Origin: an uncultured Planctomycetales bacterium
GTDB lineage: Bacteria; Planctomycetota; UBA1135
Length of the DNA: 64,000 bases
Reading direction: 5' to 3'
Assembly: GCA_964342475.1 (NCBI GenBank)
Contig: CAYFGE010000001.1
Coordinates: forward strand, 315,113-379,112
The notes below the pieces were generated by a model. That model worked only from the letters and a program-made list of their open reading frames with translations. It searched no databases and was not told the origin of the DNA. The position numbers and the translations under genes are program-made. Positions 2,019-64,000 of this stretch are shown here, piece after piece (positions within the stretch are counted from its first letter, which is position 1; each line of letters opens with the position of its first letter).

Positions 2019-3101
2019 ATGCAGCTGCGTCGCCCCGCCCCGCTCCTCGCCCTGCTCCTGGCCGCCGCCCCCGCCGCGGCCCAGGTCGTCGACGAGCCCG
2101 CGCCGCCCCCTCGCCCCGCCCCCCCTGCCGGCGGCGAGGTCCAGGTCGACGAGGCCCGCGAGCAGGCCGCCCTGGAGGAGATCAACGCCTACGCCGAGGC
2201 CAACCAGATCCCGCCGCCGAAGGAGCAGGCGGAGGCCGAGCGGCACTTCACCGCCTTCCGCGACGGACTCCTGGCCCTGGAGAAGAAGCACCACGGCACC
2301 TGGGCCGCGTGGCAGGCGCTGATGACCGTCGGCCAGATCGAGTCGCGCATCTTCCGCGACCGCCAGGCCAGCGTGAGCTCCTACCGCCGCGTCTGGCAGG
2401 GCGTCCGGCTGCGCACGGACACCCCGCCGCAGGGCATCTTCCTCAACGTGCCGCGGGTGGCGATGCGCTTCGCCGAGGAGCTCATGCGGATCGACCAGCT
2501 CGACGAGGCCGAGGTCGTGCTGCGCGAGGTGGCCGGCACCGAGCTGCCCGAGGGCGAGCGCATCCGCGAGCGCCTGCGCGAGATCCCCGAGCGGCGCCGC
2601 ATGCTGCCCGGCCAGCCGGCCCCGCTGGTCGAGATGGTGGACACCGCCGGCCGGCCGCAGAACCTCGCCGACCACCGCGGCGACGTCGTCCTGGTGCACT
2701 TCTGGTCGGCCATCCACGGCGGCAGCCTGTCCACCATCCCCCAGGTCAAGGAGCTGCTCGAGCAGCACGCCGCCGCGGGGCTGAAGGTGGTCTCGGTGAA
2801 CACCGACCTCTACGTCACGCGCGAGATCCACGAGCAGATGAAGGCCGCCGGGCAGCGCTTCCTGCCGCGCCTGTTCGACCGCGAGGACCTCGACGAGGCG
2901 GTCGCGCGCCACGGCATGGACTGGCCGGTGGTGTGGGACGGCAAGGGCCTGAACGGCCCGGTGCCCGACGCCTTCACCGTGCGCCAGCTGCCCTCGATCT
3001 ACGTGGTCGGGCGCGACGGCCGCATCGTGATCCGCAACCGCTACAACGAGGACCTGACCGAGGCGGTCGTGCGGGCGCTCGAGGCGCCCCGAGCGGACTA
3101 G
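2019..3101 (+). CDS. Secreted TlpA/thioredoxin-fold protein with a helical N-terminal domain; the CXXC motif is absent
   Basis: Signal peptide MQLRRPAPLLALLLAAAPAAAQ. The C-terminal redoxin-like block reads GDVVLVHFWSAIHGGSLSTIPQVKELLEQHAAAGLKVVSVNTD, where canonical TlpA proteins have FWATWCGPC. Confidence 0.75.
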   Translation: MQLRRPAPLLALLLAAAPAAAQVVDEPAPPPRPAPPAGGEVQVDEAREQAALEEINAYAEANQIPPPKEQAEAERHFTAFRDGLLALEKKHHGTWAAWQALMTVGQIESRIFRDRQASVSSYRRVWQGVRLRTDTPPQGIFLNVPRVAMRFAEELMRIDQLDEAEVVLREVAGTELPEGERIRERLREIPERRRMLPGQPAPLVEMVDTAGRPQNLADHRGDVVLVHFWSAIHGGSLSTIPQVKELLEQHAAAGLKVVSVNTDLYVTREIHEQMKAAGQRFLPRLFDREDLDEAVARHGMDWPVVWDGKGLNGPVPDAFTVRQLPSIYVVGRDGRIVIRNRYNEDLTEAVVRALEAPRAD

Positions 3102-4549
3102 GCCCGCGCCGCGCCGCGCAGCCGCGCGAGGCTGCGCTCGCGGCCGAGCAGGCCGAGGATGTCGCCCACCGGCGGCCCGCCGAGGGTGCCGCTGAGGGCG
3201 GCGCGCAGCGGCTTCATCACCTTGCCCATGCCGAGGCCGAGCTCGGCGGCCAGCTGCTTGGCGAAGGCGTCGAAGTCGGCCGGCGGGAAGTCCCCCGCGC
3301 CGAGCGCCTCGGCCGCGGCGGCCAGCACGCGCGGGGCGTCGGCGTCGGCCAGGGCCGGGGCCGCCTTGGCGTCGGGCTCGGCCCGCTCGCCGCGCAGGAA
3401 GGCGGCCTGCTCCCCCACCTCGGAGTAGAGGCGCAGGCGCTCGCGGAAGGCCGCGGCCAGCCGCTCGACCCAGGCCGGGTCGGTGCCGTCGTCGGCCAGC
3501 CCGGCCTCCTCCAGCCAGGGCAGCAGGCGGCGGGCCAGCTCGCCGGGCCCGGTGCCGCGCAGGTACTCGCCGCAGAGCCAGTGCAGCTTGTCCACGTCGA
3601 AGACCGCGCCGGCCTTGTTGATGCGGCCGAGCTCGAAGGCGGCGACGAGCTGCTCGGGGCGGAAGACGTCGGTCTTGTCGTCGATGGCGAAGCCGAGCAG
3701 GCCGAGGAAGTTGAACATCGCCTCGGGCGGGTAGCCCTTGGCCTCGTAGTCCCCCAGCGCGGTGTCGCCGGTGCGCTTGCTCAGCTTCTTGCCGTCGGCG
3801 CCGAGGATCAGCGGCACGTGGGCGAACTCGGGTTCGGGCAGGCCGAGGGCGCGGCACAGCAGCACCTGCTTGGGCGTGTTGGCGAGGTGCTCCTCGCCGC
3901 GGATCACGTGGCTGATCTCCATCGCCGCGTCGTCGAGGGCGCAGACGAAGTTGTAGGTCGGCATGCCGCCCGAGCGGACCGCCACCCAGTCCTCCACCTC
4001 GCCGCTGCGGAACACCACATCGCCGCGGATGTGGTCGCGCACGACGACCTCCTCGTCGTCCGGCACGGCGAAGCGCAGGACGCAGCTCTCGCCGGCCTCG
4101 GCGCGCCGCGCGGCCTCGGCCCGGTCGAGCCCGCGGCAGGTGCGGTCGTAGCCGATCGCGGCCTGCTTCTCGGCGCGCTGGCGCTCCTTCAGCTCGGCGA
4201 CGCGCTCGGGGCTGCAGAAGCAACGGTAGAGCCAGCCCTCCTCCAGGCCCCGCGCGGCGGCGGCGGCGTAGCGGTCGAGCCGCTGCGACTGGAAGTAGGG
4301 CCCGTGCGCGCCGTCCGCCTCGGGGCCCTCGTCCCAGTCGAGCCCCAGCCAGCGCAGGCTGTCGAGGATCGAGCGCAGCGACTCCTCGCTGTTGCGCTCC
4401 TCGTCAGTGTCCTCGACGCGCAGCACGAAGGCGCCGCCGTGGCGGCGGGCGTAGGCCCAGTTGAACAGGGCCGTGCGCGCCCCGCCGACGTGCAGGCGGC
4501 CGGTCGGGGAGGGCGCGAAGCGGACGCGGATCGGGCGGTCGCTGGACAT
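3098..4549 (-). CDS. gltX: Glutamate--tRNA ligase
   Basis: 483 aa. The N-terminus is RVRFAPSPTGRLHVGGARTALFNWAYARRHGG (HIGH-type motif), and KLSKR (KMSKS-type) is present. Confidence 0.95.
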   Translation of the reverse strand: MSSDRPIRVRFAPSPTGRLHVGGARTALFNWAYARRHGGAFVLRVEDTDEERNSEESLRSILDSLRWLGLDWDEGPEADGAHGPYFQSQRLDRYAAAAARGLEEGWLYRCFCSPERVAELKERQRAEKQAAIGYDRTCRGLDRAEAARRAEAGESCVLRFAVPDDEEVVVRDHIRGDVVFRSGEVEDWVAVRSGGMPTYNFVCALDDAAMEISHVIRGEEHLANTPKQVLLCRALGLPEPEFAHVPLILGADGKKLSKRTGDTALGDYEAKGYPPEAMFNFLGLLGFAIDDKTDVFRPEQLVAAFELGRINKAGAVFDVDKLHWLCGEYLRGTGPGELARRLLPWLEEAGLADDGTDPAWVERLAAAFRERLRLYSEVGEQAAFLRGERAEPDAKAAPALADADAPRVLAAAAEALGAGDFPPADFDAFAKQLAAELGLGMGKVMKPLRAALSGTLGGPPVGDILGLLGRERSLARLRGAARA

Positions 4550-4581: not shown

Positions 4582-6246
4582 TCAGCGCTCGGTCAGGACC
4601 GGGGTGAGGTCCTCGTCGAACTCGAGCTCGTAACCCCAGTAGACGTTCTGCCCCTGCCCCGGCGCCAGGCGCAGGCGCCAGCGGTAGACGCCGCGCTCGC
4701 GCTGGTCGCGCAGGTCGGCCTCGTCGCGCAGCGGGTTGGGCCGCAGCTCGACCGGCTTGATCTCGAGGCCGCCGCCGCGCACGACGGGGAGGGCCTCCTC
4801 CACCAGCACGTCGACCGCCCCCAGCGCGGCGGCGCTCAGCTTGAGCTTGGCGCGCCACACGCGGGTGATCGTGGCCGTCGAGCTGAGCAGGCCGGGGTCG
4901 TCGCGCTCGTCGCGCACCACCTCGAGCTCGACCGCCAGGTTCGGGTCGACGCCGAGGTTGAGCGTGGTCGAGTCGCCCGGGCGCAGCACCGGGAAGCGGG
5001 TGTCGCCGAGGTAGTCCGGGCCGAGGAAGATCTTGGCCTGCCCCGGCAGCAGCGGGGTGTCGCCGGTCAGGCGCACCTCGGCGCGCAGGAAGGCGCGGTC
5101 GCTGCGCGAGGGCACCAGGTAGCGCTCGGGGCGCACCTCGAGCGGCACCTCGCGGATGCGGTAGCGGTAGGGTTCGCCGTCGCCGCGGATCGTCTTGCGG
5201 TCGGGCAGCTGGAACAGCGCGCTCAGACCGAGGTCCTGGATCTGCGCCTCGGGGGCCGCGCGGAAGCCCTTGGCCGCCTCGTTGGGCAGGGCCAGGCCCT
5301 CGACCTCGGCGAAGGCCGCGCCGCCGCGGTCGAGCGCGCGCGCGTCCACCGAGGACGGCGTGGCGCGCTGGATCTCGAAGACGCGCAGCGGGACCGGCGG
5401 CGGGTCGAGGCCGACGCTCGGCGTGGAGGTGCTGAGCAGCACCTCGGCGTCGGTCCAGTCCTCGCCGGTGCGCTGGTCGAGCTCGGCGACCAGGCCGACG
5501 GTGACGCCGGTCAGGTCGGGGGCCACGCGCACGTCGTAGGTCGGCCGCCAGCGCGCGCCGCCGATCAGGTAGCTGGCGCGCAGCTCGACGCGCCCGGCGC
5601 GCTCGGCCCACACCTGGATGCGGCCGAGGTGGTAGCGGCGCAGGGGCGCGCCGTTCTCGCCGCCGAGCTCCTCGCGGACCCCGGCGATGCGCTGCTCGAG
5701 TTCGGCCACGGCGGCCTCGAGGGCGGCCAGCTCGCGGTCCAGCTCGGCGCTGCGCTCGCGCACGAAGCCGAACAGGGCGTCGAGGGCGGTGCCGTCGACG
5801 GCCGACTCGAGGATGCGGGCGCCGCCGTCGGGCGTGGCCAGCGAGGCGATCACCGAGGCCACCATCTGCTGGCCGGCCTCGATCGAGGCGCGCTCGGCGT
5901 CGAGGTCGCGGCGCTCGGCCAGCATCTCGGCCAGGCGGGCGCGCAGCTGGTCGCGCTGGCCGCGGTCGAGGGCGTCGCCCGTCACGATGCGCGTCTCCAC
6001 GCCCTGGATCACGGCCTGGCCGGCCTCGACCTTGGTCTGGAAGGAGCTGGTGTCCAGTCCGAGCGGCAGCGGGCCGATCTCGACCGTCATCGGGCCGGGC
6101 TCGTCCGCCTCCACGGCGAAGGTGCGCTCGACCAGGGCCTGGGCGGCATAGACCGTGACCCGGTCGAGGCGGGTCGAGGCCGGGACCACCGGCTGCTCCT
6201 GAGGAGCGGCGGCGGCGGCGAGGACGGCGACAGCGGTGAAAAGCAT
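4582..6246 (-). CDS. Secreted DUF4139/MuiA-like (mucoidy-inhibitor family) protein
   Basis: 554 aa with a signal peptide and a central coiled-coil (LAALEAAVAELEQRIAGV). The C-terminal block ...GQAKIFLGPDYLGDTRFPVLRPGDSTTLNLGVD... is typical of DUF4139, assigned from memory. Confidence 0.7.
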   Translation of the reverse strand: MLFTAVAVLAAAAAPQEQPVVPASTRLDRVTVYAAQALVERTFAVEADEPGPMTVEIGPLPLGLDTSSFQTKVEAGQAVIQGVETRIVTGDALDRGQRDQLRARLAEMLAERRDLDAERASIEAGQQMVASVIASLATPDGGARILESAVDGTALDALFGFVRERSAELDRELAALEAAVAELEQRIAGVREELGGENGAPLRRYHLGRIQVWAERAGRVELRASYLIGGARWRPTYDVRVAPDLTGVTVGLVAELDQRTGEDWTDAEVLLSTSTPSVGLDPPPVPLRVFEIQRATPSSVDARALDRGGAAFAEVEGLALPNEAAKGFRAAPEAQIQDLGLSALFQLPDRKTIRGDGEPYRYRIREVPLEVRPERYLVPSRSDRAFLRAEVRLTGDTPLLPGQAKIFLGPDYLGDTRFPVLRPGDSTTLNLGVDPNLAVELEVVRDERDDPGLLSSTATITRVWRAKLKLSAAALGAVDVLVEEALPVVRGGGLEIKPVELRPNPLRDEADLRDQRERGVYRWRLRLAPGQGQNVYWGYELEFDEDLTPVLTER

Positions 6247-6288
6247 GGAGGTGCTCCGGAGGTGGTCCCGCGGGACCGCGGAGGGGCT

Positions 6289-6294
6289 ATTCTA
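6289..6294 (-). promoter_or_regulatory. -10-like box TAGAAT, 42 nt upstream of the DUF4139 gene (leadered, with a GGAG SD)
   Basis: The plus strand reads attcta. The leader contains the 14-nt palindrome ggtcccgcgggacc and a GGAG 7 nt before the ATG (6246). Confidence 0.4.
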
Positions 6295-6345
6295 GGCCCC
6301 TTGCGGCCCCCCGCCTCCCCCGCGGGAGAGGGCCGGTCCCGCGCG

Positions 6346-7692
6346 ATGGAACCCGTCCCCGTGGTCGGCGCCGGCCTGGCCGGCTCGGAGGCCGCCTGGC
6401 AGCTGGCCGAGGCCGGCATCCCCGTGCGCCTGCACGAGATGCGGCCGGTGGTCCCGACGCCGGCCCACGAGACCGACCGCTGCGCCGAGCTGGTGTGCAG
6501 CAACTCGCTGGGCAGCCGCCTGCCCGACCGCGCCGGCGGCGTGCTCCAGGCCGAGCTGCGCGCGATGGGCTGCCGCCTGCTCGAGCTGGCCGAGGCCACC
6601 TCCGTCCCGGCCGGCCAGGCGCTGGCGGTGGACCGCCTGGCCTTCGCCGCCGCGGTGACCGAGGCGGTCGAGGCCCACCCGCGCATCGAGCTCGTGCGCG
6701 GCGAGGTGCCGGCGGTGCCGGAGGGCCCGGCGGTGATCGCCAGCGGGCCGCTGACCAGCGAGGCCCTCGCCGCCGACCTCGCCCGCCTGGCCGGGTCCGA
6801 ACACCTCGCCTTCTTCGACGCCATCGCCCCGGTGGTGACCGCCGACAGCCTCGACCGGGAGGTGGTCTTCGCCGCCTCGCGCTGGGGCCGCGGCGAGGGC
6901 GACGACTACCTCAACGTGCCGCTCGAGAAGGAGCACTACGAGGCCCTGGTGGACGGCCTGCTCGGCGCCGAGCGCCACGAGCTGAAGGACTTCGAGGCCG
7001 CCGACCCGCGCGCCGCGCGCTTCTTCGAGCGCTGCCTGCCGGTCGAGGTGCTGGCCGCGCGCGGCCGCGACGCCCTGCGCTACGGCCCGCTGCGCCCGGT
7101 CGGCCTCGACGACCCGCGCACCGGCCGCTGGCCCTACGCCGTGATCCAGCTGCGTGCCGAGAACCGCGGGGCGACGCTGTTCAACCTGGTCGGCTTCCAG
7201 ACCAACCTGCGCTACCCCGAGCAGGAGCGCCTGCTGCGCGCGCTGCCCGGCATGGCCGGGGCCGAGTTCGTGCGCCTCGGCAGCATGCACCGCAACACCT
7301 TCCTGTGCTCCCCGCGCGTGCTCGACGCCACCCTCGAGTGGCGCGAGCGGCCCGGCCTCTACGTCGCCGGCCAGCTGACCGGCATGGAGGGCTACCTCGG
7401 CAACATCGGCTCCGGCCTGCTGGCCGGGCGCAACCTGGTCCGCCGCCTGCGCGGCCAGGAGCCCGAGGTCCTGCCGCGCAAGACCCTGCTCGGGTCCCTG
7501 GCCCTCCACGTGGCCGAGGCCCCGGCCGAGTCCTTCCAGCCGATGAAGGCCGAGTTCGGCCTGCTACCCTCTCTGCCCGGCCGCGTGCGCCGGGACCAGC
7601 GCAAGCGCGCCCACGCCGAGCGCTCCGCCCAAGCCCTGCAGGATCACCTGCGCCGACACCCCATGCCCGCCCCCGACCCGGCGGCCGCCTGA
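6346..7692 (+). CDS. trmFO: Methylenetetrahydrofolate--tRNA-(uracil-5-)-methyltransferase
   Basis: The internal ATG of track ORF 5629..7692 gives MEPVPVVGAGLAGSEAAWQLAEAGIPVRLHEMRP...CAELVCSNSLGS, a FAD Rossmann fold with the TrmFO/Gid signature. The upstream extension is a low-complexity shadow frame. Confidence 0.9.
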   Translation: MEPVPVVGAGLAGSEAAWQLAEAGIPVRLHEMRPVVPTPAHETDRCAELVCSNSLGSRLPDRAGGVLQAELRAMGCRLLELAEATSVPAGQALAVDRLAFAAAVTEAVEAHPRIELVRGEVPAVPEGPAVIASGPLTSEALAADLARLAGSEHLAFFDAIAPVVTADSLDREVVFAASRWGRGEGDDYLNVPLEKEHYEALVDGLLGAERHELKDFEAADPRAARFFERCLPVEVLAARGRDALRYGPLRPVGLDDPRTGRWPYAVIQLRAENRGATLFNLVGFQTNLRYPEQERLLRALPGMAGAEFVRLGSMHRNTFLCSPRVLDATLEWRERPGLYVAGQLTGMEGYLGNIGSGLLAGRNLVRRLRGQEPEVLPRKTLLGSLALHVAEAPAESFQPMKAEFGLLPSLPGRVRRDQRKRAHAERSAQALQDHLRRHPMPAPDPAAA

Positions 7693-55707: not shown

Positions 55708-57696
55708 CTACTCGTCGTCCGAGTCGACGTAGCCCAGGTCCTGCAGGTTCTGGTCCGCCGCCTCGGCGGCCATCGGGTCGCTCGGCATGCGCGGCTCGGG
55801 CGGCTCGGGGAGGCCGCCGGGCACCGTGCGCACCGGGCGCGCCGCGAGGGCGGCCGGATCGAAGGCCTCGGTGAGCACGCGGCCGGGCAGGTCCGCGGGC
55901 ACCGGCAGCCCCATCGCGTGGAGCAGGGTCGGGGCGACGTCGTAGAGGTCCGCCACCTCGTCCCCGCCCTCGCCGATGCGCGCGCCGGGGAGGATGCCCG
56001 GGCCGCGCAGCAGCACGATGCCGTCCAGGGTGTGGTCGCCGCTGCGGTCCTCGGTGCGGAACAGGTCGCCGGCGGTGACCTCCTGGCCGGCCACGAGCAG
56101 CGGGGTGTCGAAGCCGTCGAGGACGCCGGGGGCGTAGTCGACCACGACCAGGCCGACCTCCTCGCGGAAGGGCTGAGGCAGGAAGGGCCGCGCCTCGGGC
56201 TTGCCCACGACGTGGCTCTCCGAGAGCAGGCGGTGGACCTCGAGCAGGTCCTGGCGCCCGGCCTCGCCCCCCACCGAGCTGGAGATGTTGAGCTGCTTGC
56301 CGGCCACCGAGTAGTTCACCCGCTCGGCCACGCCGAGCAGCTCGAACAGGGCCTGGGCGCGCACACGCCCGGTCAGGTGGCCGCCCTCGGCCGCGGCCTT
56401 CATGCCGTGGTCGGAGACCACCGCGACGAGGACCCGGTCGAGGTCGAGCCGCGCGAGGACGCGGCCGAGGTGCCGGTCGGACTCGCGGTAGGCGTCGCGC
56501 ACGACCTCGGCGCGCTCGGCGCGCAGCTCGGGGCTGACGCCCTCGAAGGCCTCCTCACCGAAGGCCTCGGGCTCGTGGTACTTCCAGTAGTTGTGCCCGA
56601 GGGAGTCGACCGGGTACAGGATCAGCGCCGAGCAGCCCGGCGCCTCGCGCAGCATGAGCTCGAACCACAGGTCGGTCTGCAGCCGGGCCTGGACCATCTT
56701 GATCCGCCAGTAGCGGTCCTCCTCGCCGAGGCCGCGCAGCAGGATCTCGCCCATCGCGTGCAGGTTCAGCCAGGCGCTGTCGGCGGCAGAGATGGCCATC
56801 GCGCTGAGCCCGTCGCCGAGCATGCGGCCGCTCAGCAGCGGCGTGCGCGCCTTCCCGCTCGCCTCGAGGCGCTTGAGGAAGGAGGCCTCGGCGGGCAGGG
56901 TCTCGTAACCGCGGGCGAGCCAGCCGGGCACGCCGAAGCCGGGGTAGTCGTCCGGCGGCCAGGTGATGTGCCACTCCATCAGGCCGACGCCGCTGCCGGC
57001 CTCGACGGCGGCGTCCCAGAAGCGGCCGACCTTGAGGTTCTGCCGGTCGGAGTTGAAGTCGATCACGCCGTTGACCTCGGTCGGCTGGCCGGTGGCCATG
57101 ATCGTCCACACGCGCGGCGACAGGCTGGGCTCCTCCGACTTCAGGGTGCCGGAGGCCCCCTCCTCTCGCAGCGCGGCGAGGTGCGGCAGCTCGCCGGCGG
57201 CGATCATCGGGTCGATCTGCGGCCAGGTACCGGCGTCGATGCCGACGACGACGACGGGCTGCACGGCGGAGGCGTCGGGCTCGACCGGCGGCGCCGGCCG
57301 GGCGGCCACGACCAGGACCCCGAGCACCACGGCCACCGCGCGGCGGCGGCCCGCCGCGCTCAGCCAGACGCCCAGGAGGACGGCCAGCAGGGCCCCGACC
57401 CAGCCCATCAGGGGCAGCCGGGCGATCGGCGCGGCGGCCACGCCGAGCCACGGGGCGGCCGCGAGCAGCGCGCCGAGGGCGGCGGCCACCGCGTGGCGCC
57501 CGCGCAGGACGAGGCCGAACAGGCCGCCGAAGACCAGGCCGAGCAGGGCCGGGGCGAGGACGAGCAGGGCCAGGGCCGGCAGCAGCGGCCGCGCCAGGGA
57601 GGGCGCCGAGACGGACACCGCCACGGTGGCGGCGAGGACGGCGGCGGCGGCGGCGGAGAGGCCCGCGGACGGGCGCGACTCGGGAGGCGCGGTCAT
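55708..57696 (-). CDS. Membrane-anchored alkaline-phosphatase-superfamily (nucleotide pyrophosphatase/phosphodiesterase-like) protein
   Basis: 662 aa. It has about 4 N-terminal TM helices, then VVVVGIDAGTWPQIDPMIAAGELPHLAAL...EPSLSPRVWTIMATGQ...VAVVSDHGM..., the AlkP-type metal and nucleophile motifs. Confidence 0.7.
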   Translation of the reverse strand: MTAPPESRPSAGLSAAAAAVLAATVAVSVSAPSLARPLLPALALLVLAPALLGLVFGGLFGLVLRGRHAVAAALGALLAAAPWLGVAAAPIARLPLMGWVGALLAVLLGVWLSAAGRRRAVAVVLGVLVVAARPAPPVEPDASAVQPVVVVGIDAGTWPQIDPMIAAGELPHLAALREEGASGTLKSEEPSLSPRVWTIMATGQPTEVNGVIDFNSDRQNLKVGRFWDAAVEAGSGVGLMEWHITWPPDDYPGFGVPGWLARGYETLPAEASFLKRLEASGKARTPLLSGRMLGDGLSAMAISAADSAWLNLHAMGEILLRGLGEEDRYWRIKMVQARLQTDLWFELMLREAPGCSALILYPVDSLGHNYWKYHEPEAFGEEAFEGVSPELRAERAEVVRDAYRESDRHLGRVLARLDLDRVLVAVVSDHGMKAAAEGGHLTGRVRAQALFELLGVAERVNYSVAGKQLNISSSVGGEAGRQDLLEVHRLLSESHVVGKPEARPFLPQPFREEVGLVVVDYAPGVLDGFDTPLLVAGQEVTAGDLFRTEDRSGDHTLDGIVLLRGPGILPGARIGEGGDEVADLYDVAPTLLHAMGLPVPADLPGRVLTEAFDPAALAARPVRTVPGGLPEPPEPRMPSDPMAAEAADQNLQDLGYVDSDDE

Positions 57697-57705
57697 GGGA
57701 CTCCG

Positions 57706-57711
57706 ATTCTA
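57706..57711 (-). promoter_or_regulatory. -10-like box TAGAAT, 9 nt from the ATG of the AlkP-family gene
   Basis: The plus strand reads attcta. The start codon ends at 57696. Confidence 0.5.
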
Positions 57712-57736
57712 CGGGGCCGGGGAAGCGCGGGCCGGC

Positions 57737-58522
57737 TCAGCGGCCCTCGAAGGCGGGCGGCCGCTTCTCGGCGAAGGCGGCCAGGGCCTCGAGGCGGTCG
57801 CGGGTCGGCAGGATGCGCTGGTAGCAGGCCGACTCGTGCTCGAGCCCCTCCTCCTCGGTCAGGTCGAGGCTGCCGTCGATGGCCGCCTTGGCGGCGCGCA
57901 GGGCCAGCGGCCCGTTGCGCAGCAGGGCCTCGACCATCTCCTCCCCCGCGCGGCGCGCCCCGCCCGCCTCGGCGGCGAGGTGGACCAGGCCGACGCGCGC
58001 GGCCTCGGCGGCGTCGAGCCGCTGGGCGAGCAGGATGAGCTCCTTCGCCTTGGCTGCGCCGACGAGGCGCGGCAGGCGCACGCAGCCGCCGGCCCCGGGG
58101 ATGATCGCCAGGCTGGTCTCGGTCAGGCCGATGCTCGCCGCGCCGTCGAGCACGCGCAGGTCGCAGGCCAGCGCCATCTCGCAGCCGCCGCCGAAGGCGT
58201 GGCCGTTCATCACCGCCACGGTCGGCTGCGGCAGGGCGGCGACGTCGTCCATCGTGCCGCGGATCTGCCGCACGAACTCCCGCACCTGCTCCTCGCTCAG
58301 CGTGCGCCGCTCCTTGAGGTCAGCGCCGGCGCAGAAGGCGCGGTCGCCCGCCCCGGTGATCGCCACCACCCAGGTCTCGGGATCCTCGCGCAGCTCGGCG
58401 AGCAGGCCGCGCAGGCGCAGCAGCGTGGGCAGGGAGAGGGCGTTGCGCGCCTCCGGCCGGTTCAGGGTGAGCCAAGCCGTGCGGCCGCGGCGCTCGAGGA
58501 GGACGAGGTCTTGGTCGGTCAT
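57737..58522 (-). CDS. Enoyl-CoA hydratase/isomerase family (methylglutaconyl-CoA-hydratase-like)
   Basis: An internal ATG of track ORF 57737..58573 gives 261 aa: ...LTLNRPEARNAL...ITGAGDRAFCAGADLKER...MNGHAFGGGCEMALACD.... Confidence 0.85.
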   Translation of the reverse strand: MTDQDLVLLERRGRTAWLTLNRPEARNALSLPTLLRLRGLLAELREDPETWVVAITGAGDRAFCAGADLKERRTLSEEQVREFVRQIRGTMDDVAALPQPTVAVMNGHAFGGGCEMALACDLRVLDGAASIGLTETSLAIIPGAGGCVRLPRLVGAAKAKELILLAQRLDAAEAARVGLVHLAAEAGGARRAGEEMVEALLRNGPLALRAAKAAIDGSLDLTEEEGLEHESACYQRILPTRDRLEALAAFAEKRPPAFEGR

Positions 58523-58535
58523 CGCTGTCGCGGCG

Positions 58536-59411
58536 TCACGCCGAGGTCCGGGCGCGCGCCAGGGATTCTCCAAGGTAACGGGTCGCCTCGCCGAGGGCGC
58601 CGCCGTCGAGCGGGAACTCGGCCCCTTCCTCGCGCAGCGCGGCGGCCAGGGCGGCCATGTCGAGGTTGCCCTTGGCTCCGGGCGCGAAGGGGCAGCCGCC
58701 CGCCCCGCCGGCGGCGGCGTCGAAGTGGCGCACCCCGAGCTGCCAGGCGCGGCGCGCGTTCTCGGCCGCGTGACCGAAGGTGTCGTGCAGGTGGACGCCG
58801 AGGTGCTCGCCGTCGACCCGCTCGAGGGCGCCGCCGACCAGCTCCTCGACCTGCGCCACGGAGCCGGTGCCGAGGGTGTCCGCCAGGACCAGCACTTCGG
58901 GACCGGCCCCGGCCCAGGCGTCGACCAGCTCCATCACCCACGCCACGGGCGGCGGGCCGTCGAAGGGGCAGCCGAAGGCCATGGAGACGTAGGCGCGCAC
59001 GGGGTGCCCGGCGGCGCGCGCTGCCCGCGCCAGGGCGAGGTTCTCCTCGAGCGCCCCGGCCACCGACATGCCGACGTTCGCCCGGCTGTGGCCCTCGGTC
59101 GAGGAGACGAGCAGGGTCACGCCGTCGAGGCCGGAGGCGAGGAAGCGCTCCATGCCGCGCGCGTTGGCCACCAGGCCGTAGAGCGCCACCCGGTCGCGCC
59201 AGGCGGCGCCGCGCAGACCGGCGCAGACCGCCTCGGCGTCGGCCAGCGGCGGCAGGAGGTCGGGGCGGACGAAGCTCGTGGCCTCGATGGTGTCCGGCCG
59301 CGCGGCAGCGAGCCGCTCGATCAGGGCCAGCTTGTCGGCGGTGGGCAGCACCGCCTTCTCGTTCTGCAGCCCGTCCCGCGGCGCGACCTCGTGCAGGTGC
59401 GCGCGGCTCAC
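58536..59411 (-). CDS. Hydroxymethylglutaryl-CoA lyase
   Basis: GTG at 59411 forms a GTGA overlap with the upstream gene. 291 aa: HEVAPRDGLQNE...IEATSFV...LADTLGTG...GVHLHDTFGHA...FDAAAGGAGGCPFAPGAKGN. Confidence 0.85.
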   Translation of the reverse strand: MSRAHLHEVAPRDGLQNEKAVLPTADKLALIERLAAARPDTIEATSFVRPDLLPPLADAEAVCAGLRGAAWRDRVALYGLVANARGMERFLASGLDGVTLLVSSTEGHSRANVGMSVAGALEENLALARAARAAGHPVRAYVSMAFGCPFDGPPPVAWVMELVDAWAGAGPEVLVLADTLGTGSVAQVEELVGGALERVDGEHLGVHLHDTFGHAAENARRAWQLGVRHFDAAAGGAGGCPFAPGAKGNLDMAALAAALREEGAEFPLDGGALGEATRYLGESLARARTSA

Positions 59412-60142
59412 CGCGGCTTCTCCAGGCACACCATGCCGAAGGTGAAGCGGCGGTCGGGGTGGCGCAGGTCGAGCAGGTGGCGCGCGCCGTCGTCGTGGAA
59501 GCCCGGCTCCCCCACCCAGGCGAGCCCGAGGTGGTCGACCAGCTCGTGCACGGCCGCGGTGTCGCGCAGCGCGCCCTCGCCCGGCGCGTCGCGCCCGAGC
59601 TCGAAGCTGAAGACCATGCGGCCGCCCGGGCGCAGCGCGGCGGCCAGGCGGCGCAGCGCGGCGCGGTGGGCGTCGTGCGGCATGTGCTCGATCACGCAGA
59701 AGCTGGTGACCAGGTCGAGCGAGCAGTCCGGCGGCAGCTCCGCGGTGGTCAGGTCGACGGTGCTGGCCTCGAGCTTCCAGCCGAAGCGGCGCGCCGCGCG
59801 CTGGCTGCGCTCGACCAGGTCGGCGTCGATGTCGTGGACCCGGACGCGGGCGCCGCGCGCGGCCAAGTAGTAGGCCGGCAGGGTGGCGCCGCCGCCGAAG
59901 TCGAGGACGTCCCGCGCCTCCTCGGCGCGCGCGTGGGCCAGGCCGCAGGCGTACTCCCACATCTTCGGACCGCGCACGTAGAAGCGGCCGTGCGGGATGC
60001 CGTTGACCGCCACCGCCTGCCCGCGGAGGAACATCCGGCGCACGAAGCGCCGCAGGCGCGCCGCCTGCGAGCGCACCGGTTCCCGGCGCAGGTCGAGGAG
60101 GTCGAGGCTCTTGTGGATCGGCTGCGGGGACGCCGCGCTCAT
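59408..60142 (-). CDS. Class I SAM-dependent methyltransferase
   Basis: An internal ATG of track ORF 59408..60697 gives 244 aa. Motif I is [29 protein letters not shown], followed by ...[13 protein letters not shown].... Confidence 0.75.
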
Positions 60143-60144
60143 GC

Positions 60145-60999
60145 TCAGGGGAACTTCGGCTCGTGCGCGGCGATGCGCGCCTCCTTCTCCGTCACCTCGC
60201 GCGCCCACTGGCGCACCAGCGGGTCGACGCGCGACTTGCACAGGTACTGGAGCAGGAAACGCAGGCGGTCGGCGCGCGTCACCGTGGCGGGCGCGGAGTG
60301 GGCCATCGCGGCCAGGTCCTTGACCAGCCAGCGCCGCCGCGGCGGGAACCGCTGCTCGACGCGCTGCAGGTCGATCAGGTAGGGCCGGCCCCAGCGCTCG
60401 TCCTCGGTGACGACGAAGTGGGCCAGGTAGAGGTCGCGGTGGTAGAAGCCGCTGCTGTGCAGGCGGCGGACGAGGCCGGCCACGTCGCGCACCACGCGGT
60501 CGCGGGCCTGCGCCGCGGTGAGGCCGGGGAAGGCGCCCCAGCCGTCCGCGAGCAGGTGGTCGAGGCGGCGCCCGGGGATCTCGCGCAGGACGAGGAAGCT
60601 CTCGCAGGGGCGGCCGGGGCCGATCGGCGCATCGCCCACCGCCACCATCTCCGGGACGTCGAACCAGGCGCGCCGCAGCAGGCGCAGGTTGTCCCACTCG
60701 CGGTGGCCGGGGCTGCGGCTCGGCAGCAGCCAGCCCAGCCAGCGGTGGCGCAGGTCGGCGCGCGCGTAGGACTTCAGGTAGAGCGCGCCGGCGGGGGTCT
60801 CGATGCGGCGCGTCACCCGCGGCCCGGCCACCCGGACGACCTCGCCCCCGTCGAAGGCCACCGCGCCGGCCACCGTGTCGAGGCCGAGCTCGCGCAGCAC
60901 CTCCTGGTAGGGCTCGGCCGCCAGCACGCGCCCGTGATCCAGCTCGACGATCGGGAGCTGGCGCGGGCGGTAGCGTCGGGCGGCGCGCGGCGCGTCCAT
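60145..60999 (-). CDS. Lipopolysaccharide kinase (WaaP/RfaP/InaA family)
   Basis: An internal ATG of track ORF 60145..62502 gives 284 aa: ...LYLKSYA...REWDNLRLL...[10 protein letters not shown]...[15 protein letters not shown]...YLIDLQRV. The HRDxYxxHF motif matches WaaP from memory. Confidence 0.75.
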
Positions 61000-61005
61000 G
61001 CGCTC

Positions 61006-61011
61006 ATCCTC
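61006..61011 (-). promoter_or_regulatory. -10-like box GAGGAT, 6 nt from the ATG of the LPS-kinase gene
   Basis: The plus strand reads atcctc. Spacer gcgctc, start at 60999. Confidence 0.3.
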
Positions 61012-61056
61012 GGATTCGGGCGCGGTCGAGACAACCGCCGGAGGGGGAAAATGCGC

Positions 61057-61076
61057 GGCCGGCGCGCGCGCGCCGG
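61057..61076. promoter_or_regulatory. Perfect 20-bp palindrome in the divergent LPS-kinase / gdh control region
   Basis: ggccggcgcg|cgcgccggcc is self-complementary over all 20 nt. It lies 58 nt from the kinase start and 68 nt from the gdh start. Confidence 0.3.
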
Positions 61077-61143
61077 CCCCACGCGGATAACCTTGTCCCC
61101 CCTCCGCTCCCCTCTTCCCCCTTGGAGTACCCTGGGAGTCCTC

Positions 61144-62421
61144 ATGGCGGAACCCGTCACCCACTCTCCTGCCGGGCAGGAGTCCAACCCGTTCGTCCAG
61201 ATGCAGCGGCGCTTCGACCTCGCCGCGCAGCTGCTGGGGCTCGATCCCGGGACCGCCAAGATCCTGTCCACCCCGGCCCAGGAGATCACCACCGCGGTGC
61301 CGGTCTCGATGGACGACGGCTCGCTGCGGGTGTTCACCGGCTACCGGGTCCAGCACTCGATCGCGCGCGGCCCGGCCAAGGGCGGCATCCGCTACGCGCC
61401 GGACGTCTCGCTCGACGAGGTGCGCGCGCTGGCCGCCTGGATGAGCTGGAAGTGCGCGGTGGTCGACGTCCCCTTCGGCGGCGGCAAGGGCGGCATCATC
61501 TGCGATCCGCGGCGCATGTCGCAGCGCGAGCTGGAGCGGATGACCCGCCGCTACACCTCGAACCTGCTCGACCTGATCGGTCCCGAGCGCGACGTGCCGG
61601 CGCCCGACATGAACACCAACGAGCAGGTCATGGCCTGGTTCATGGACACCTACTCCATGCACCGCCGCTCGACCCAGACGGCCATCGTGACCGGCAAGCC
61701 GATCGGCCTCGGCGGCAGCCAGGGGCGCCGCGAGGCGACCGGCCTCGGCGTGGCCTTCACCGTGCGCGAGTCGCTCAAGCACCTCGGCATGCCCGACCGC
61801 GGCTGCCGCATCGTGGTGCAGGGCTCGGGCAACGTCGGCGGCCTCGGCGCGCTGTTCCTGCACGAGATGGGCCACAAGGTGGTCGCCATCTCGGACATGT
61901 ACGGCGCGATCCACGACGAGAAGGGCCTCGACATGCCCAAGGTGCTCGACCACCTGCGCGACCACGGCCGCCTCGAGGGCTTCCCCGGCAGCACCACGAT
62001 CAGCAACGCCGAGCTGCTGGAGCTCGACTGCGAGGTGCTGGTGCCGGCGGCCACCGAGAACCAGATCACCTCGGAGAACGCCGCGCGCGTGAAGGCGAAG
62101 GTCATCGTCGAGGGCGCCAACGGTCCGACCACGGCCTCGGCCGACGAGATCCTCCAGGGCCAGGGCGTGTTCGTCGCGCCCGACATCCTGGCCAACGCCG
62201 GCGGCGTGACCGTGTCCTACTTCGAGTGGGTGCAGGACCGCATGGGCTACTTCTGGGACAAGCAGGACGTCTTCGACCGGATGGAGAACATCATGGTGAA
62301 GTCCTTCCACGACGTGGCCACCGCCGCCGAGCGCTACGGCACCAGCCCGCGCATCGGCGCCTACTGCGTCGCCATCGACCGCGTGGCCTACTGCCTGAAG
62401 ATGCGAGGGATCTATGCCTGA
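61144..62421 (+). CDS. gdh: Glutamate (Glu/Leu/Phe/Val-family) dehydrogenase, catalytically complete copy
   Basis: An internal ATG of track ORF 60163..62421 gives 425 aa with [37 protein letters not shown] and [17 protein letters not shown] lies 5 nt upstream. Confidence 0.9.
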
Positions 62422-63721
62422 TCCGCGGAACACCGCCCCGCCCGAGTTCGAGGAGCAGCAGCCGCCGAGCCCCGCGCTCGACGAGGACGACCCCTTCTCC
62501 ACGATGATGGAGCGCTTCGACGAGGCCGCCGTGCTGCTCGGCCTCGCCCCGGACGCCTACATGGTCCTCCGCCGCCCCGACCGCGAGTTCAAGTTCGCGG
62601 TGCCGATCATCGACGAGCACGGCGAGATCCAGGTCCACCACGGCTTCCGCATCCGCCACAACCTGTCGCTCGGCCCCTGCCTCGGCGGCCTGCGCCTCGA
62701 CGCCCACCTCAAGCGCGAGGAGCTGCGCGCCCTGGCCGCCTGGACGACCTGGAAGTGCGCCGCGCTGAACATCCCCTTCGGCGGCGCCATGGGCGGCGTG
62801 GACTTCGACCCCCGCGGCCGCGACCCGCACGTCACCGAGGGCGTGGTGCGCCGCTACATGTCCGGCGTGCTCGACCTGGTCGGCCCGGAGCAGGACATCC
62901 TCGCCCCCGACCTGCACTGCGACGAGCAGATCATGGCCTGGTGCCTCGACACCTACTCGATGCACGCGCGCCACACCGAGAACGCCGTGGTGGTCGGCAA
63001 GCCGCTGGGCCTCGGCGGCTCGATCGGGCGCGACTACGCCGTCGGCCGCGGCGCCCGCGTGCTCATGGAGGAGTGCCTGCGCGAGCGGGGCCACGAGGGT
63101 CCGGCCGAGGTCGTGGTGCAGGGCACCGGCAACGTCGGCGGCCAGGTCCTTCGCGAGCTCGCCCGCACCGGGCACCGCGTGGTCGCCGTCGGCGACTTCC
63201 GCGGCGCCGTACGCCGCGAGGGCGGCCTCGACCTCCAGGCCCTGATGGCCTGGCGCGGCGAGCACCTCACCGTGGCCGGCTTCCCCGGCGGCGAGGCGAT
63301 CAGCCAGGAGGAGCTCCTCGCCCACCCCTGCGACGTGCTCATCCCCGCCGCGGTGTCCAAGCAGCTGACCGGCGGGAACGCCGGCGGCGTGCAGGCGCGC
63401 CTGGTGGTCGAGGTGGCCAACGGGCCGACCACGGCCAACGCCGACCGCGAGTTGGCCGAGCGCGGCGTCACCGTCGTGCCCGACCTGCTGGGCAACGCCG
63501 GCTCGGCGATCATCGCCTACTTCGAGTGGGTGCAGAACCGCATGGGCTACCGCTGGGACGAGGCCATGGTGCAGGAGCGCCTCGACCGCATGCTGCTCGA
63601 CGCCTTCCGCCGCACCCGCGAGGAGGCGCGCAAGCACGACTGCAGCCTGCGCCTCGCCGCCTGCCTGATCGGGGTCGAGCGGGTCGCCTACTACGACCGC
63701 ATCCGCGGGACCTACGCCTGA
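62414..63721 (+). CDS. Glutamate-dehydrogenase-family paralog lacking two conserved lysines (putative non-catalytic or regulatory subunit)
   Basis: 435 aa with an 8-nt overlap on the upstream gdh. The fold is colinear, but the motifs read GPCLGGLRL and [10 protein letters not shown] in place of GPAKGGIRY and [10 protein letters not shown]. The Rossmann motif VQGTGNVGG is retained. Confidence 0.8.
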
Positions 63722-63748
63722 GCGCCGGCGCGCCGCGCCCGGGGCGGC

Positions 63749-64000
63749 CTAGCCCGGCCCGGGCGGCTCGCCCCAGTGCAGCTTGCTGCGCAGGCGGGCG
63801 AAGAAGTTGGCGTCGGGGTCGACGACCAGGTGGAAGCGCCGCGTGCTCGGCGTGACGCGCACCACGTCGCCCGGCTGCAGCCGCGCCTCGAGGTGGCCGT
63901 CGGCGGTGAAGCCGGCCCAACCGTGCACGTTCAGCTGCGCCATGCGCTGCCCCGGCAGGACCAGCGGGCGCTGGTTCAGGGTGTGCGGGGCGATCGGCGT
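63749..64000 (-). CDS. nadK: NAD(+) kinase, C-terminal part only (N-terminus beyond the right edge)
   Basis: My minus-strand translation from nt 64000 gives TPIAPHTLNQRPLVLPGQRMAQLNVHGWAGFTADGHLEARLQPGDVVRVTPS.... The xPIxPHTLxxRPLV motif is typical of NadK/PpnK. The track lists only the part starting at the internal Met. Confidence 0.8.
   Translation of the reverse strand, partial: TPIAPHTLNQRPLVLPGQRMAQLNVHGWAGFTADGHLEARLQPGDVVRVTPSTRRFHLVVDPDANFFARLRSKLHWGEPPGPG

Follow-up and report, generated by a model that had tools for sequence, protein, structure and literature searches.

In a stretch of 64,000 nucleotides from an uncultured Planctomycetales bacterium (contig CAYFGE010000001.1 of assembly GCA_964342475.1, hereafter the window, with positions counted from its first letter), two adjacent genes on the forward strand encode paralogous proteins of the glutamate dehydrogenase (GDH) type. 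The first one, copy 1 (61144..62421, 425 amino acids), is a canonical GDH of the 50-kDa class, presumed from its Pfam domains, its match in the PDB and its residues to be a catalytic subunit. The second one, copy 2 (62414..63721, 435 amino acids), is a paralog that lacks two of the conserved active-site lysines (K-less in what follows), which its domains, its clade and its structural model mark as a presumed non-catalytic partner subunit. The reading that we favor, with a rough probability of 0.6, is that copy 2 is made along with copy 1 and co-assembles with it in a hetero-oligomeric GDH, as GdhA does in Thermus. In such a complex, copy 1 would be the catalytic GDH, and copy 2 would be translated in step with it by termination-reinitiation at the overlap of the two genes. 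The resulting pseudoenzyme would then join copy 1 in a mixed hexamer, where it would alter the kinetics or the effector response of the catalytic subunits, an effect like that of GdhA on GdhB in Thermus thermophilus.

Active-site residues of the two copies

At the level of the fold, both copies belong to the Glu/Leu/Phe/Val dehydrogenase superfamily. Each of them carries complete PF02812 (ELFV_dehydrog_N) and PF00208 (ELFV_dehydrog) domains, far above the cut-offs of Pfam (E-values of 3e-58 and 1.8e-79 in copy 1, and of 2.3e-40 and 2e-58 in copy 2). The two proteins are colinear, with 46% identity and one gap of a single residue, and they share the GDH of Thermotoga maritima as their closest relative of solved structure (E-values of 3e-145 for copy 1 and 2e-101 for copy 2).

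Residues were compared in an alignment anchored on Clostridium symbiosum, Thermotoga and Thermus sequences checked against the PDB, and they are numbered after the C. symbiosum (Cs) enzyme, whose reference sequence is identical to 1bgv_A. Of the other references, Thermus GdhA agrees with 3aoe_E at every residue from 3 to 419, and GdhB shows one mismatch with 3aoe_A. In this alignment copy 1 is canonical throughout, with K79, K103, K115, A153, D155 and S358 at Cs K89, K113, K125, A163, D165 and S380. The catalytic lysine of the GGxKGG motif (Cs K125), present as K115 in copy 1, is replaced in copy 2 by Met126 (codon ATG, 62789..62791; this and the following codons are on the plus strand). The lysine and the serine that bind the gamma-carboxylate of the substrate, K79 and S358 in copy 1, are likewise absent from copy 2, where Leu90 (codon CTC, 62681..62683) takes the place of Cs K89, and Ala368 (codon GCC, 63515..63517), an alanine in at least 90% of the copy 2 clade described below, takes that of Cs S380. 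Further changes in copy 2 affect Cs P162 and F/Y94, both replaced by Leu, G376, replaced by Ser, and V377, replaced by Ala.

Other hallmarks of a GDH are still found in copy 2, and all of them are conserved in its clade: the alpha-carboxylate-binding Lys114 (Cs K113; codon AAG, 62753..62755), a lysine in at least 90% of the members, the active-site Asp166 (Cs D165; codon GAC, 62909..62911), which is invariant, the GxGxxG motif, here GTGNVG, and the acidic residue of the NAD fold, D261. In the GDH of Escherichia coli, the equivalent K92 and S380 hold the gamma-carboxyl of the substrate, K116 and N348 hold its main-chain carboxyl, and K126 is the key catalytic residue (PMC8784811). Combined with the alignment, these roles imply that copy 2 lacks the catalytic lysine as well as both binders of the glutamate side chain. 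The 127 canonical relatives in the alignment all keep K89, K113, K125 and D165, and 126 of them also keep S380, so that the substitutions at K89 and K125 in copy 2 lie far beyond normal variation. With such a set of residues, copy 2 is very probably inactive as a GDH.

An earlier sequence-only reading of this DNA had pointed to two GDH-family genes overlapping by 8 nucleotides (nt), the second one without the substrate-carboxylate and the catalytic lysines and with the Rossmann GTGNVGG, the TWKCAA lysine and the APD aspartate in place. The open reading frames and their coordinates are as it described, and every motif that it quoted for either copy is present in the translations (DVPAPDMNT of copy 1 and GTGNVGG of copy 2 among them). 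The alignment assigns the two lost lysines to L90 and M126, and the retained features to K114, D166 and GxGxxG. Its list of losses was nevertheless incomplete, since the change of S380 to A368 has to be added to the two lysines. That reading had also allowed for lysines that were shifted in copy 2; the alignment with characterized GDHs, gap-free around the motifs, shows them to be replaced, and the shifted-lysine explanation was rejected. The idea of a metal or redox site peculiar to the clade (C89, H168, C169) was also considered and dropped, as canonical GDHs can have Cys at position 88 too and C169 is variable.

Conservation of the gene pair

The start codon of copy 2 lies inside the last codons of copy 1. 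Its ATG (62414-62416) stands 5 nt ahead of the TGA of copy 1 (62419-62421), resulting in an overlap of 8 nt (62414..62421, plus strand), ATGCCTGA, which comprises this start and the stop codon of copy 1, and the junction reads ...ATCTATGCCTGATCC... in the window. The overlap presumably couples the translation of copy 2 to that of copy 1. Four nt before the ATG there is a purine-rich GAGGG (62405..62409, plus strand), a candidate ribosome-binding site that arises from the Arg-Gly codons of the C-terminal RG(I/L)YA of copy 1. At other loci the equivalent Arg-Gly codons likewise precede the ATG of the K-less gene, and a possible role of GAGGG in ribosome binding is inseparable from the coding constraint on these codons.

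A search among 5.8 billion proteins, clustered at 90% identity, delimited a clade of 83 clusters (P0001-P0083) with 60-97% identity to copy 2. Beyond P0083 the identity falls sharply to about 50% or less, which corresponds to ordinary GDHs. The named members are mostly metagenome-assembled genomes (MAGs) of Planctomycetota. All members carry the motifs GP[C/T][L/I]GG and PFGG[A/S][M/A/F]G[G/A], and AYFEWVQN occurs in nearly all of them. The position of Cs K89 is occupied by Leu in 80 of the 83 clusters and by Ile in the other 3, and that of Cs K125 mostly by Met, by Ala in one subclade and by Phe once, never by Lys. In a neighbor-joining (NJ) tree of 176 sequences the clade has a bootstrap of 100. 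The sequence-only reading had suggested checking whether K-less copies form a conserved clade, and the answer is positive: next to the clade of copy 2 a sister K-less clade, described below, came to light, and a canonical GDH lies directly upstream at the loci inspected.

Within a sample of 46 sequences of the clade, 91 columns are invariant. When each copy is compared with near and remote relatives, the ratio of nonsynonymous to synonymous substitution rates (dN/dS) ranges from 0.07 to 0.20 in copy 1 and from 0.12 to 0.43 in copy 2. Purifying selection acts on both genes, and the rate of evolution of copy 2 is about 1.5-2 times that of copy 1. An AlphaFold2 (AF2) model of copy 2 shows the full GDH fold (mean per-residue confidence, pLDDT, of 82.5; predicted template-modeling score, pTM, of 0.82), with template-modeling (TM) scores of 0.85-0.89 to solved GDHs. 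Ahead of this fold there is an acidic, proline-rich N-terminal extension of about 26 residues (62414..62491, plus strand) that is predicted to be disordered. In the model pLDDT drops below 50 at residues 9-22, and disorder is limited to the first 25 residues or so. The extension follows the consensus MPD..EEPQAPSP.L..DDPF in the copy 2 clade, where P18 is invariant; it is shared by both K-less clades, and the canonical partners are devoid of it.

Ten lineages of the copy 2 clade were inspected for their genomic context (the window, L076, L081, L082/83, L084/85, L089-91, L092, L093, L094 and L095/96). A canonical GDH gene is found directly upstream of the K-less gene in all ten. The 8-nt overlap, as ATGCCTGA, ATGCCTAA or ATGCTTAA, is present in nine, which besides the window are represented by L076, L081, L082, L084, L089, L092, L093 and L095; the basal L094 has a gap of 18 nt. 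Overlap and conserved pairing place the paralog beside a canonical GDH in one transcription unit, an arrangement of the Thermus type. The surroundings are conserved too: upstream, in divergent orientation, genes for a Kdo/WaaP-family kinase, in many cases a methyltransferase, an HMG-CoA lyase and an enoyl-CoA hydratase, and downstream, in convergent orientation, genes for NAD kinase, DXP synthase, polyprenyl synthase and exonuclease VII. The distance matrices of the upstream and the downstream gene of the pair are correlated with r = 0.95, which indicates that the pair has been inherited together. For comparison, among 80 GDH loci of other genomes, a baseline re-used from a scan of genome contigs with the copy 2 clade alignment, only two tandem GDH pairs occur, each with a K-less second gene. 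The peptide patterns of the genome scan (MAWx[LM]DTYS and YFEWVQN) were unspecific and retrieved mostly canonical GDHs at 41-49% identity, L076 and L004 being the only informative loci.

A second, uncharacterized K-less clade, sister to that of copy 2, occurs in Planctomycetia and related MAGs. It comprises P0084, P0093, P0095, P0106, P0115, P0118, P0123 and the downstream gene of L004 (4726-5988), and its loci also include L086-L088, with the gene at 6001-7314 or 3021-4334. Like copy 2, its members have lost K89 and K125, and they follow directly a canonical GDH gene, beyond which the divergent Kdo/WaaP-family kinase gene is found again. Their motifs are different, however: GP[FY][LFI]GP, with G91 changed to Pro, GG[AS][AS]GG, and EG[AS]H, with N347 changed to His. 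Unlike copy 2, they have also lost R205, and at position 380 three of the 8 members have Ser, the others having Asn or Asp. Their junctions are either a 14-nt gap or TGATG, as opposed to the 8-nt overlap of the copy 2 clade. The NJ tree gives each K-less clade a bootstrap of 100 and the two of them together 91, and the upstream canonical partners form clades that match the K-less ones. The pair predates the split of these two Planctomycetota clades, and the pairing with a canonical GDH is strict and ancient.

The Thermus precedent and rival explanations

To our knowledge, Thermus thermophilus is the only bacterium whose GDH is known to be a hetero-oligomer with a dead regulatory paralog, and no relevant description of K-less, pseudo- or hetero-oligomeric GDHs from other sources came up in a literature search. 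In Thermus, as in the window, two adjacent paralogous genes encode GDHs of the 50-kDa class, one canonical and one without the catalytic lysine. The Thermus operon appears to have the order gdhA-gdhB, with the regulatory gene first; in the window the dead copy comes second. According to PMC9570180, which cites Tomita et al. 2010, 2011 and 2019, GdhA is a catalytically inactive, leucine-responsive regulatory subunit, and AMP acts on the Thermus GDH through a further partner. No homolog of such an AMP-sensing partner, related to adenine phosphoribosyltransferase (APRT), turned up near the GDH pair, where no search was aimed at one.

Thermus GdhA (3aoe_E, four chains per hexamer) reads PFGGAAGG, with Ala at Cs K125, where copy 2 reads PFGGAMGG and one subclade of its clade has Ala as in GdhA. 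The two proteins also have in common the replacements of P162 and F/Y94 by Leu and the variants EVAN and PDLL, and the shared changes at P162 and F94 could be due to ancestry or to convergence. Differences are equally clear: K89 and S380, kept in GdhA, are both lost in copy 2, whereas the acidic residue of the NAD fold (VAVATS in GdhA) and the NGPTT motif, lost in GdhA, are kept in copy 2. The likeness to Thermus proposed from the sequence alone is closer than that reading had assumed, because GdhA itself has lost K125, replaced by Ala. It needs amending on three points: GdhA is described in PMC9570180 as inactive and not as poorly active, orthology is not demonstrated, and the gene order appears to be reversed.

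Mixed oligomers of paralogous subunits have been reported elsewhere. The alpha, beta and, in some cases, gamma subunits of plant GDH mix in hetero-hexamers (PMC12364357), and this mixing of paralogs in one hexamer alters its properties, as proposed for the pair. The plant subunits come from separate genes (PMC2759343), as opposed to the coupled operon in the window. Among solved structures, Arabidopsis GDH2 comes closest to the AF2 model of copy 2, with a TM score of 0.89. As far as is known, plant GDH subunits are all catalytically competent, in contrast to the presumed state of copy 2. A dead paralog is the case of the trypanosome S-adenosylmethionine decarboxylase (AdoMetDC) prozyme, which partners with its active counterpart and regulates it (PMC5201418). 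The analogy with copy 2 is only conceptual, as the fold is unrelated and the complex is a heterodimer.

From the coupling and the precedent, we infer with moderate confidence that copy 2 co-assembles with copy 1. Several points weigh against this interpretation. Orthology of copy 2 with Thermus GdhA is unsupported: although all 33 taxa of the NJ subtree holding both proteins are K-less, its deep nodes have bootstraps near 0, and in phmmer copy 2 scores 301 bits against GdhB and 263 bits against GdhA, copy 1 being also closer to GdhB. The residues of the Thermus leucine site (the Arg of RRY, the Asp of MDTYS, and the Arg and Tyr of the C-terminal RGxY) are found in both copies, but the same residues occur in the Thermotoga GDH and in the aligned canonical relatives, which makes them non-discriminating and permissive only for a regulation by leucine. 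Any shared function would account for the translational coupling and the co-inheritance, and the preservation of K113, D165, GxGxxG and D261 would leave room for ligand binding and for a residual or different chemistry.

Copy 2 might instead work on its own, as a homo-hexamer that either senses a metabolite or NAD(H) or binds some other partner as a regulator of the trigger-enzyme kind, in both cases co-expressed with copy 1 and not assembled with it. The four retained features just mentioned suggest that the ligand and NAD(H) site has been kept, and the conserved disordered extension of the K-less copies could be an interaction tail. Nonetheless, a coupling behind a canonical GDH that recurs as an 8-nt overlap in nine of ten lineages is most simply explained by co-assembly, for which the GdhA4-GdhB2 hexamer of the Thermus crystal sets a precedent, and the core of the N-terminal dimerization domain is well conserved between the two copies, so we regard a stand-alone role as rather unlikely. 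A new chemistry is a different matter: copy 2 could be an active enzyme, such as an NAD(P)H-dependent reductase or dehydrogenase of a hydrophobic amino or imino acid that dispenses with the water-activating lysine. Replacing K89 by Leu and S380 by Ala removes exactly the two gamma-carboxylate binders and turns the pocket hydrophobic, the same kind of change at 89 and 380 that separates Leu, Phe and Val dehydrogenases from GDH. The alpha-carboxylate lysine, D165 and the dinucleotide fold are conserved, and Leu90 is closer to invariance than pure decay predicts. Even so, the catalytic lysine is missing in every member of the clade and invariant in the 127 canonical relatives, and the residues at 163, 376 and 377 in the side-chain pocket differ from one member of the clade to another (163 being A, C, I, S, T, F, L, V or M), unlike those of a specific substrate site. 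The sister clade, at the same locus, has moreover lost G91, R205 and N347. Nor does copy 2 belong with the Leu and Phe dehydrogenases, as positions 89 and 380 are hydrophobic, yet the catalytic lysine is absent and its likeness to these enzymes in the PDB is remote (E-values of about 1e-10, versus 2e-101 for GDH). An active copy 2 seems to us distinctly improbable.

A gene that evolves about 1.5-2 times faster than its neighbor may also be a recently inactivated one on its way to loss, and its substitutions might even be artefacts of sequencing or assembly. This explanation is barely credible, because the 83 clusters, drawn from many independent assemblies, contain intact, full-length open reading frames with the same replacements, dN/dS stays far below 1, 91 columns are invariant, and the pair is older than the split of the two Planctomycetota clades. 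The idea that copy 2 is a pseudogene was rejected on its conservation and its dN/dS.

Returning to the mixed hexamer, the near-invariant Leu90 and the conserved K114, D166 and D261 leave open that the old active site may still bind something. Since the alpha-carboxylate lysine, the aspartate and the NAD fold are kept and the gamma-carboxylate binders have become Leu and Ala, the pocket could accommodate a hydrophobic amino acid and/or NAD(H). A speculative, quite unlikely extension of the co-assembly reading is that the dead active site has been re-purposed as a sensor of a hydrophobic amino acid (leucine or methionine) and/or NAD(H), signaling to the catalytic subunits of the mixed hexamer. 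If true, this would be an allosteric route other than the one through the leucine site at the subunit interface of Thermus and mammalian GDHs, and it would define a widespread, unrecognized family of K-less GDH subunits. Leucine activates the GDHs of Thermus and mammals, and HMG-CoA lyase and enoyl-CoA hydratase carry out late steps of leucine breakdown; the conserved neighboring genes for these two enzymes would fit a link with leucine. Their presence beside the pair is suggestive of such a link, and it is equally well explained by plain synteny.

Under the co-assembly reading, the Thermus logic would be fixed across a Planctomycetota-wide clade, with a distinct loss of the active site and a conserved translational coupling. 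The concept is a known one, and in the literature searched its breadth and the hydrophobic remodeling of the pocket are undescribed. K-less genes are annotated plainly as glutamate dehydrogenase or Glu/Leu/Phe/Val dehydrogenase, which means that metabolic reconstructions would credit genomes with too much GDH activity and overlook a regulatory layer at the branch point of carbon and nitrogen. The pair would also offer a compact system for learning how a pseudoenzyme subunit tunes an oligomeric dehydrogenase.

Neighboring genes and K-less sequences beyond the clade

Upstream of the pair, four genes on the minus strand, with positions transferred from L089, make up the conserved divergent block. 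They encode an enoyl-CoA hydratase (57737-58522), an HMG-CoA lyase (58536-59411, above the cut-off of NCBIfam NF004283), a methyltransferase (59408-60142) and the Kdo/WaaP-family kinase (60145-60999), divergent from copy 1. The 144 nt between the kinase gene and copy 1 (61000..61143) are the presumed promoter region of the pair. A scan for promoters and terminators found none, nor any sigma-70-like consensus site, a result that is uninformative at 74% GC and in a host that probably does not follow the sigma-70 consensus. Downstream, the C-terminal part of an NAD kinase gene (63749-64000, minus strand) converges on copy 2 and lies 27 nt past its stop codon, an arrangement shared by most loci of the clade. 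Over the 8 kb of 56001-64000, the window is 96% identical at the DNA level to L089 (GCA_046766295.1, JBJNWA010001024.1), so its source is a close relative of GCA_046766295.1.

K-less GDHs are not restricted to the two Planctomycetota clades. Among the 150 best representatives of 50%-identity clusters found with copy 2, 32 lack K89, K113 or K125, a count that leaves out two N-terminally truncated fragments and comes from a sample that the query biases towards K-less sequences. The patterns at these three positions among representatives P0121-P0269 include LKQ, LRQ, LTA, LQM, IKM, KKC and KKS, among others. Outside the Planctomycetota clade there are 20 K125-less lineages, not counting Thermus GdhA; 9 of these have Leu at K89, 16 carry a replacement of P162, and 18 retain the acidic residue of the NAD fold. 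One representative, P0260, with the pattern LKA, groups with Thermus GdhA with a bootstrap of 100. These figures suggest that K-less GDH paralogs are common, at about a fifth of the nearest representative clusters.

Two other sequences have lost K125 in an otherwise canonical context. At L048 (6001-7272), from the Terriglobia MAG SRVP_23, a GDH with the usual GPAKGG and SYFEW motifs reads PFGGAAGG, with Ala at K125, and a second GDH is absent within 6 kb; it would be a dead GDH standing alone, or else the product of an assembly error. P0108, nested in a canonical clade (bootstrap of 92 with P0112), differs only in the change of K125 to Met, in PFGGAMGG, and may represent an independent, recent loss of this lysine.

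Finally, the region 55918-63920 of the window is crossed on both strands and in several frames by very long overlapping open reading frames, such as 56963..60382 (1139 amino acids) and 60145..62502 on the minus strand (785 amino acids). They are by-products of the 74% GC content and coincide only partly with real genes.

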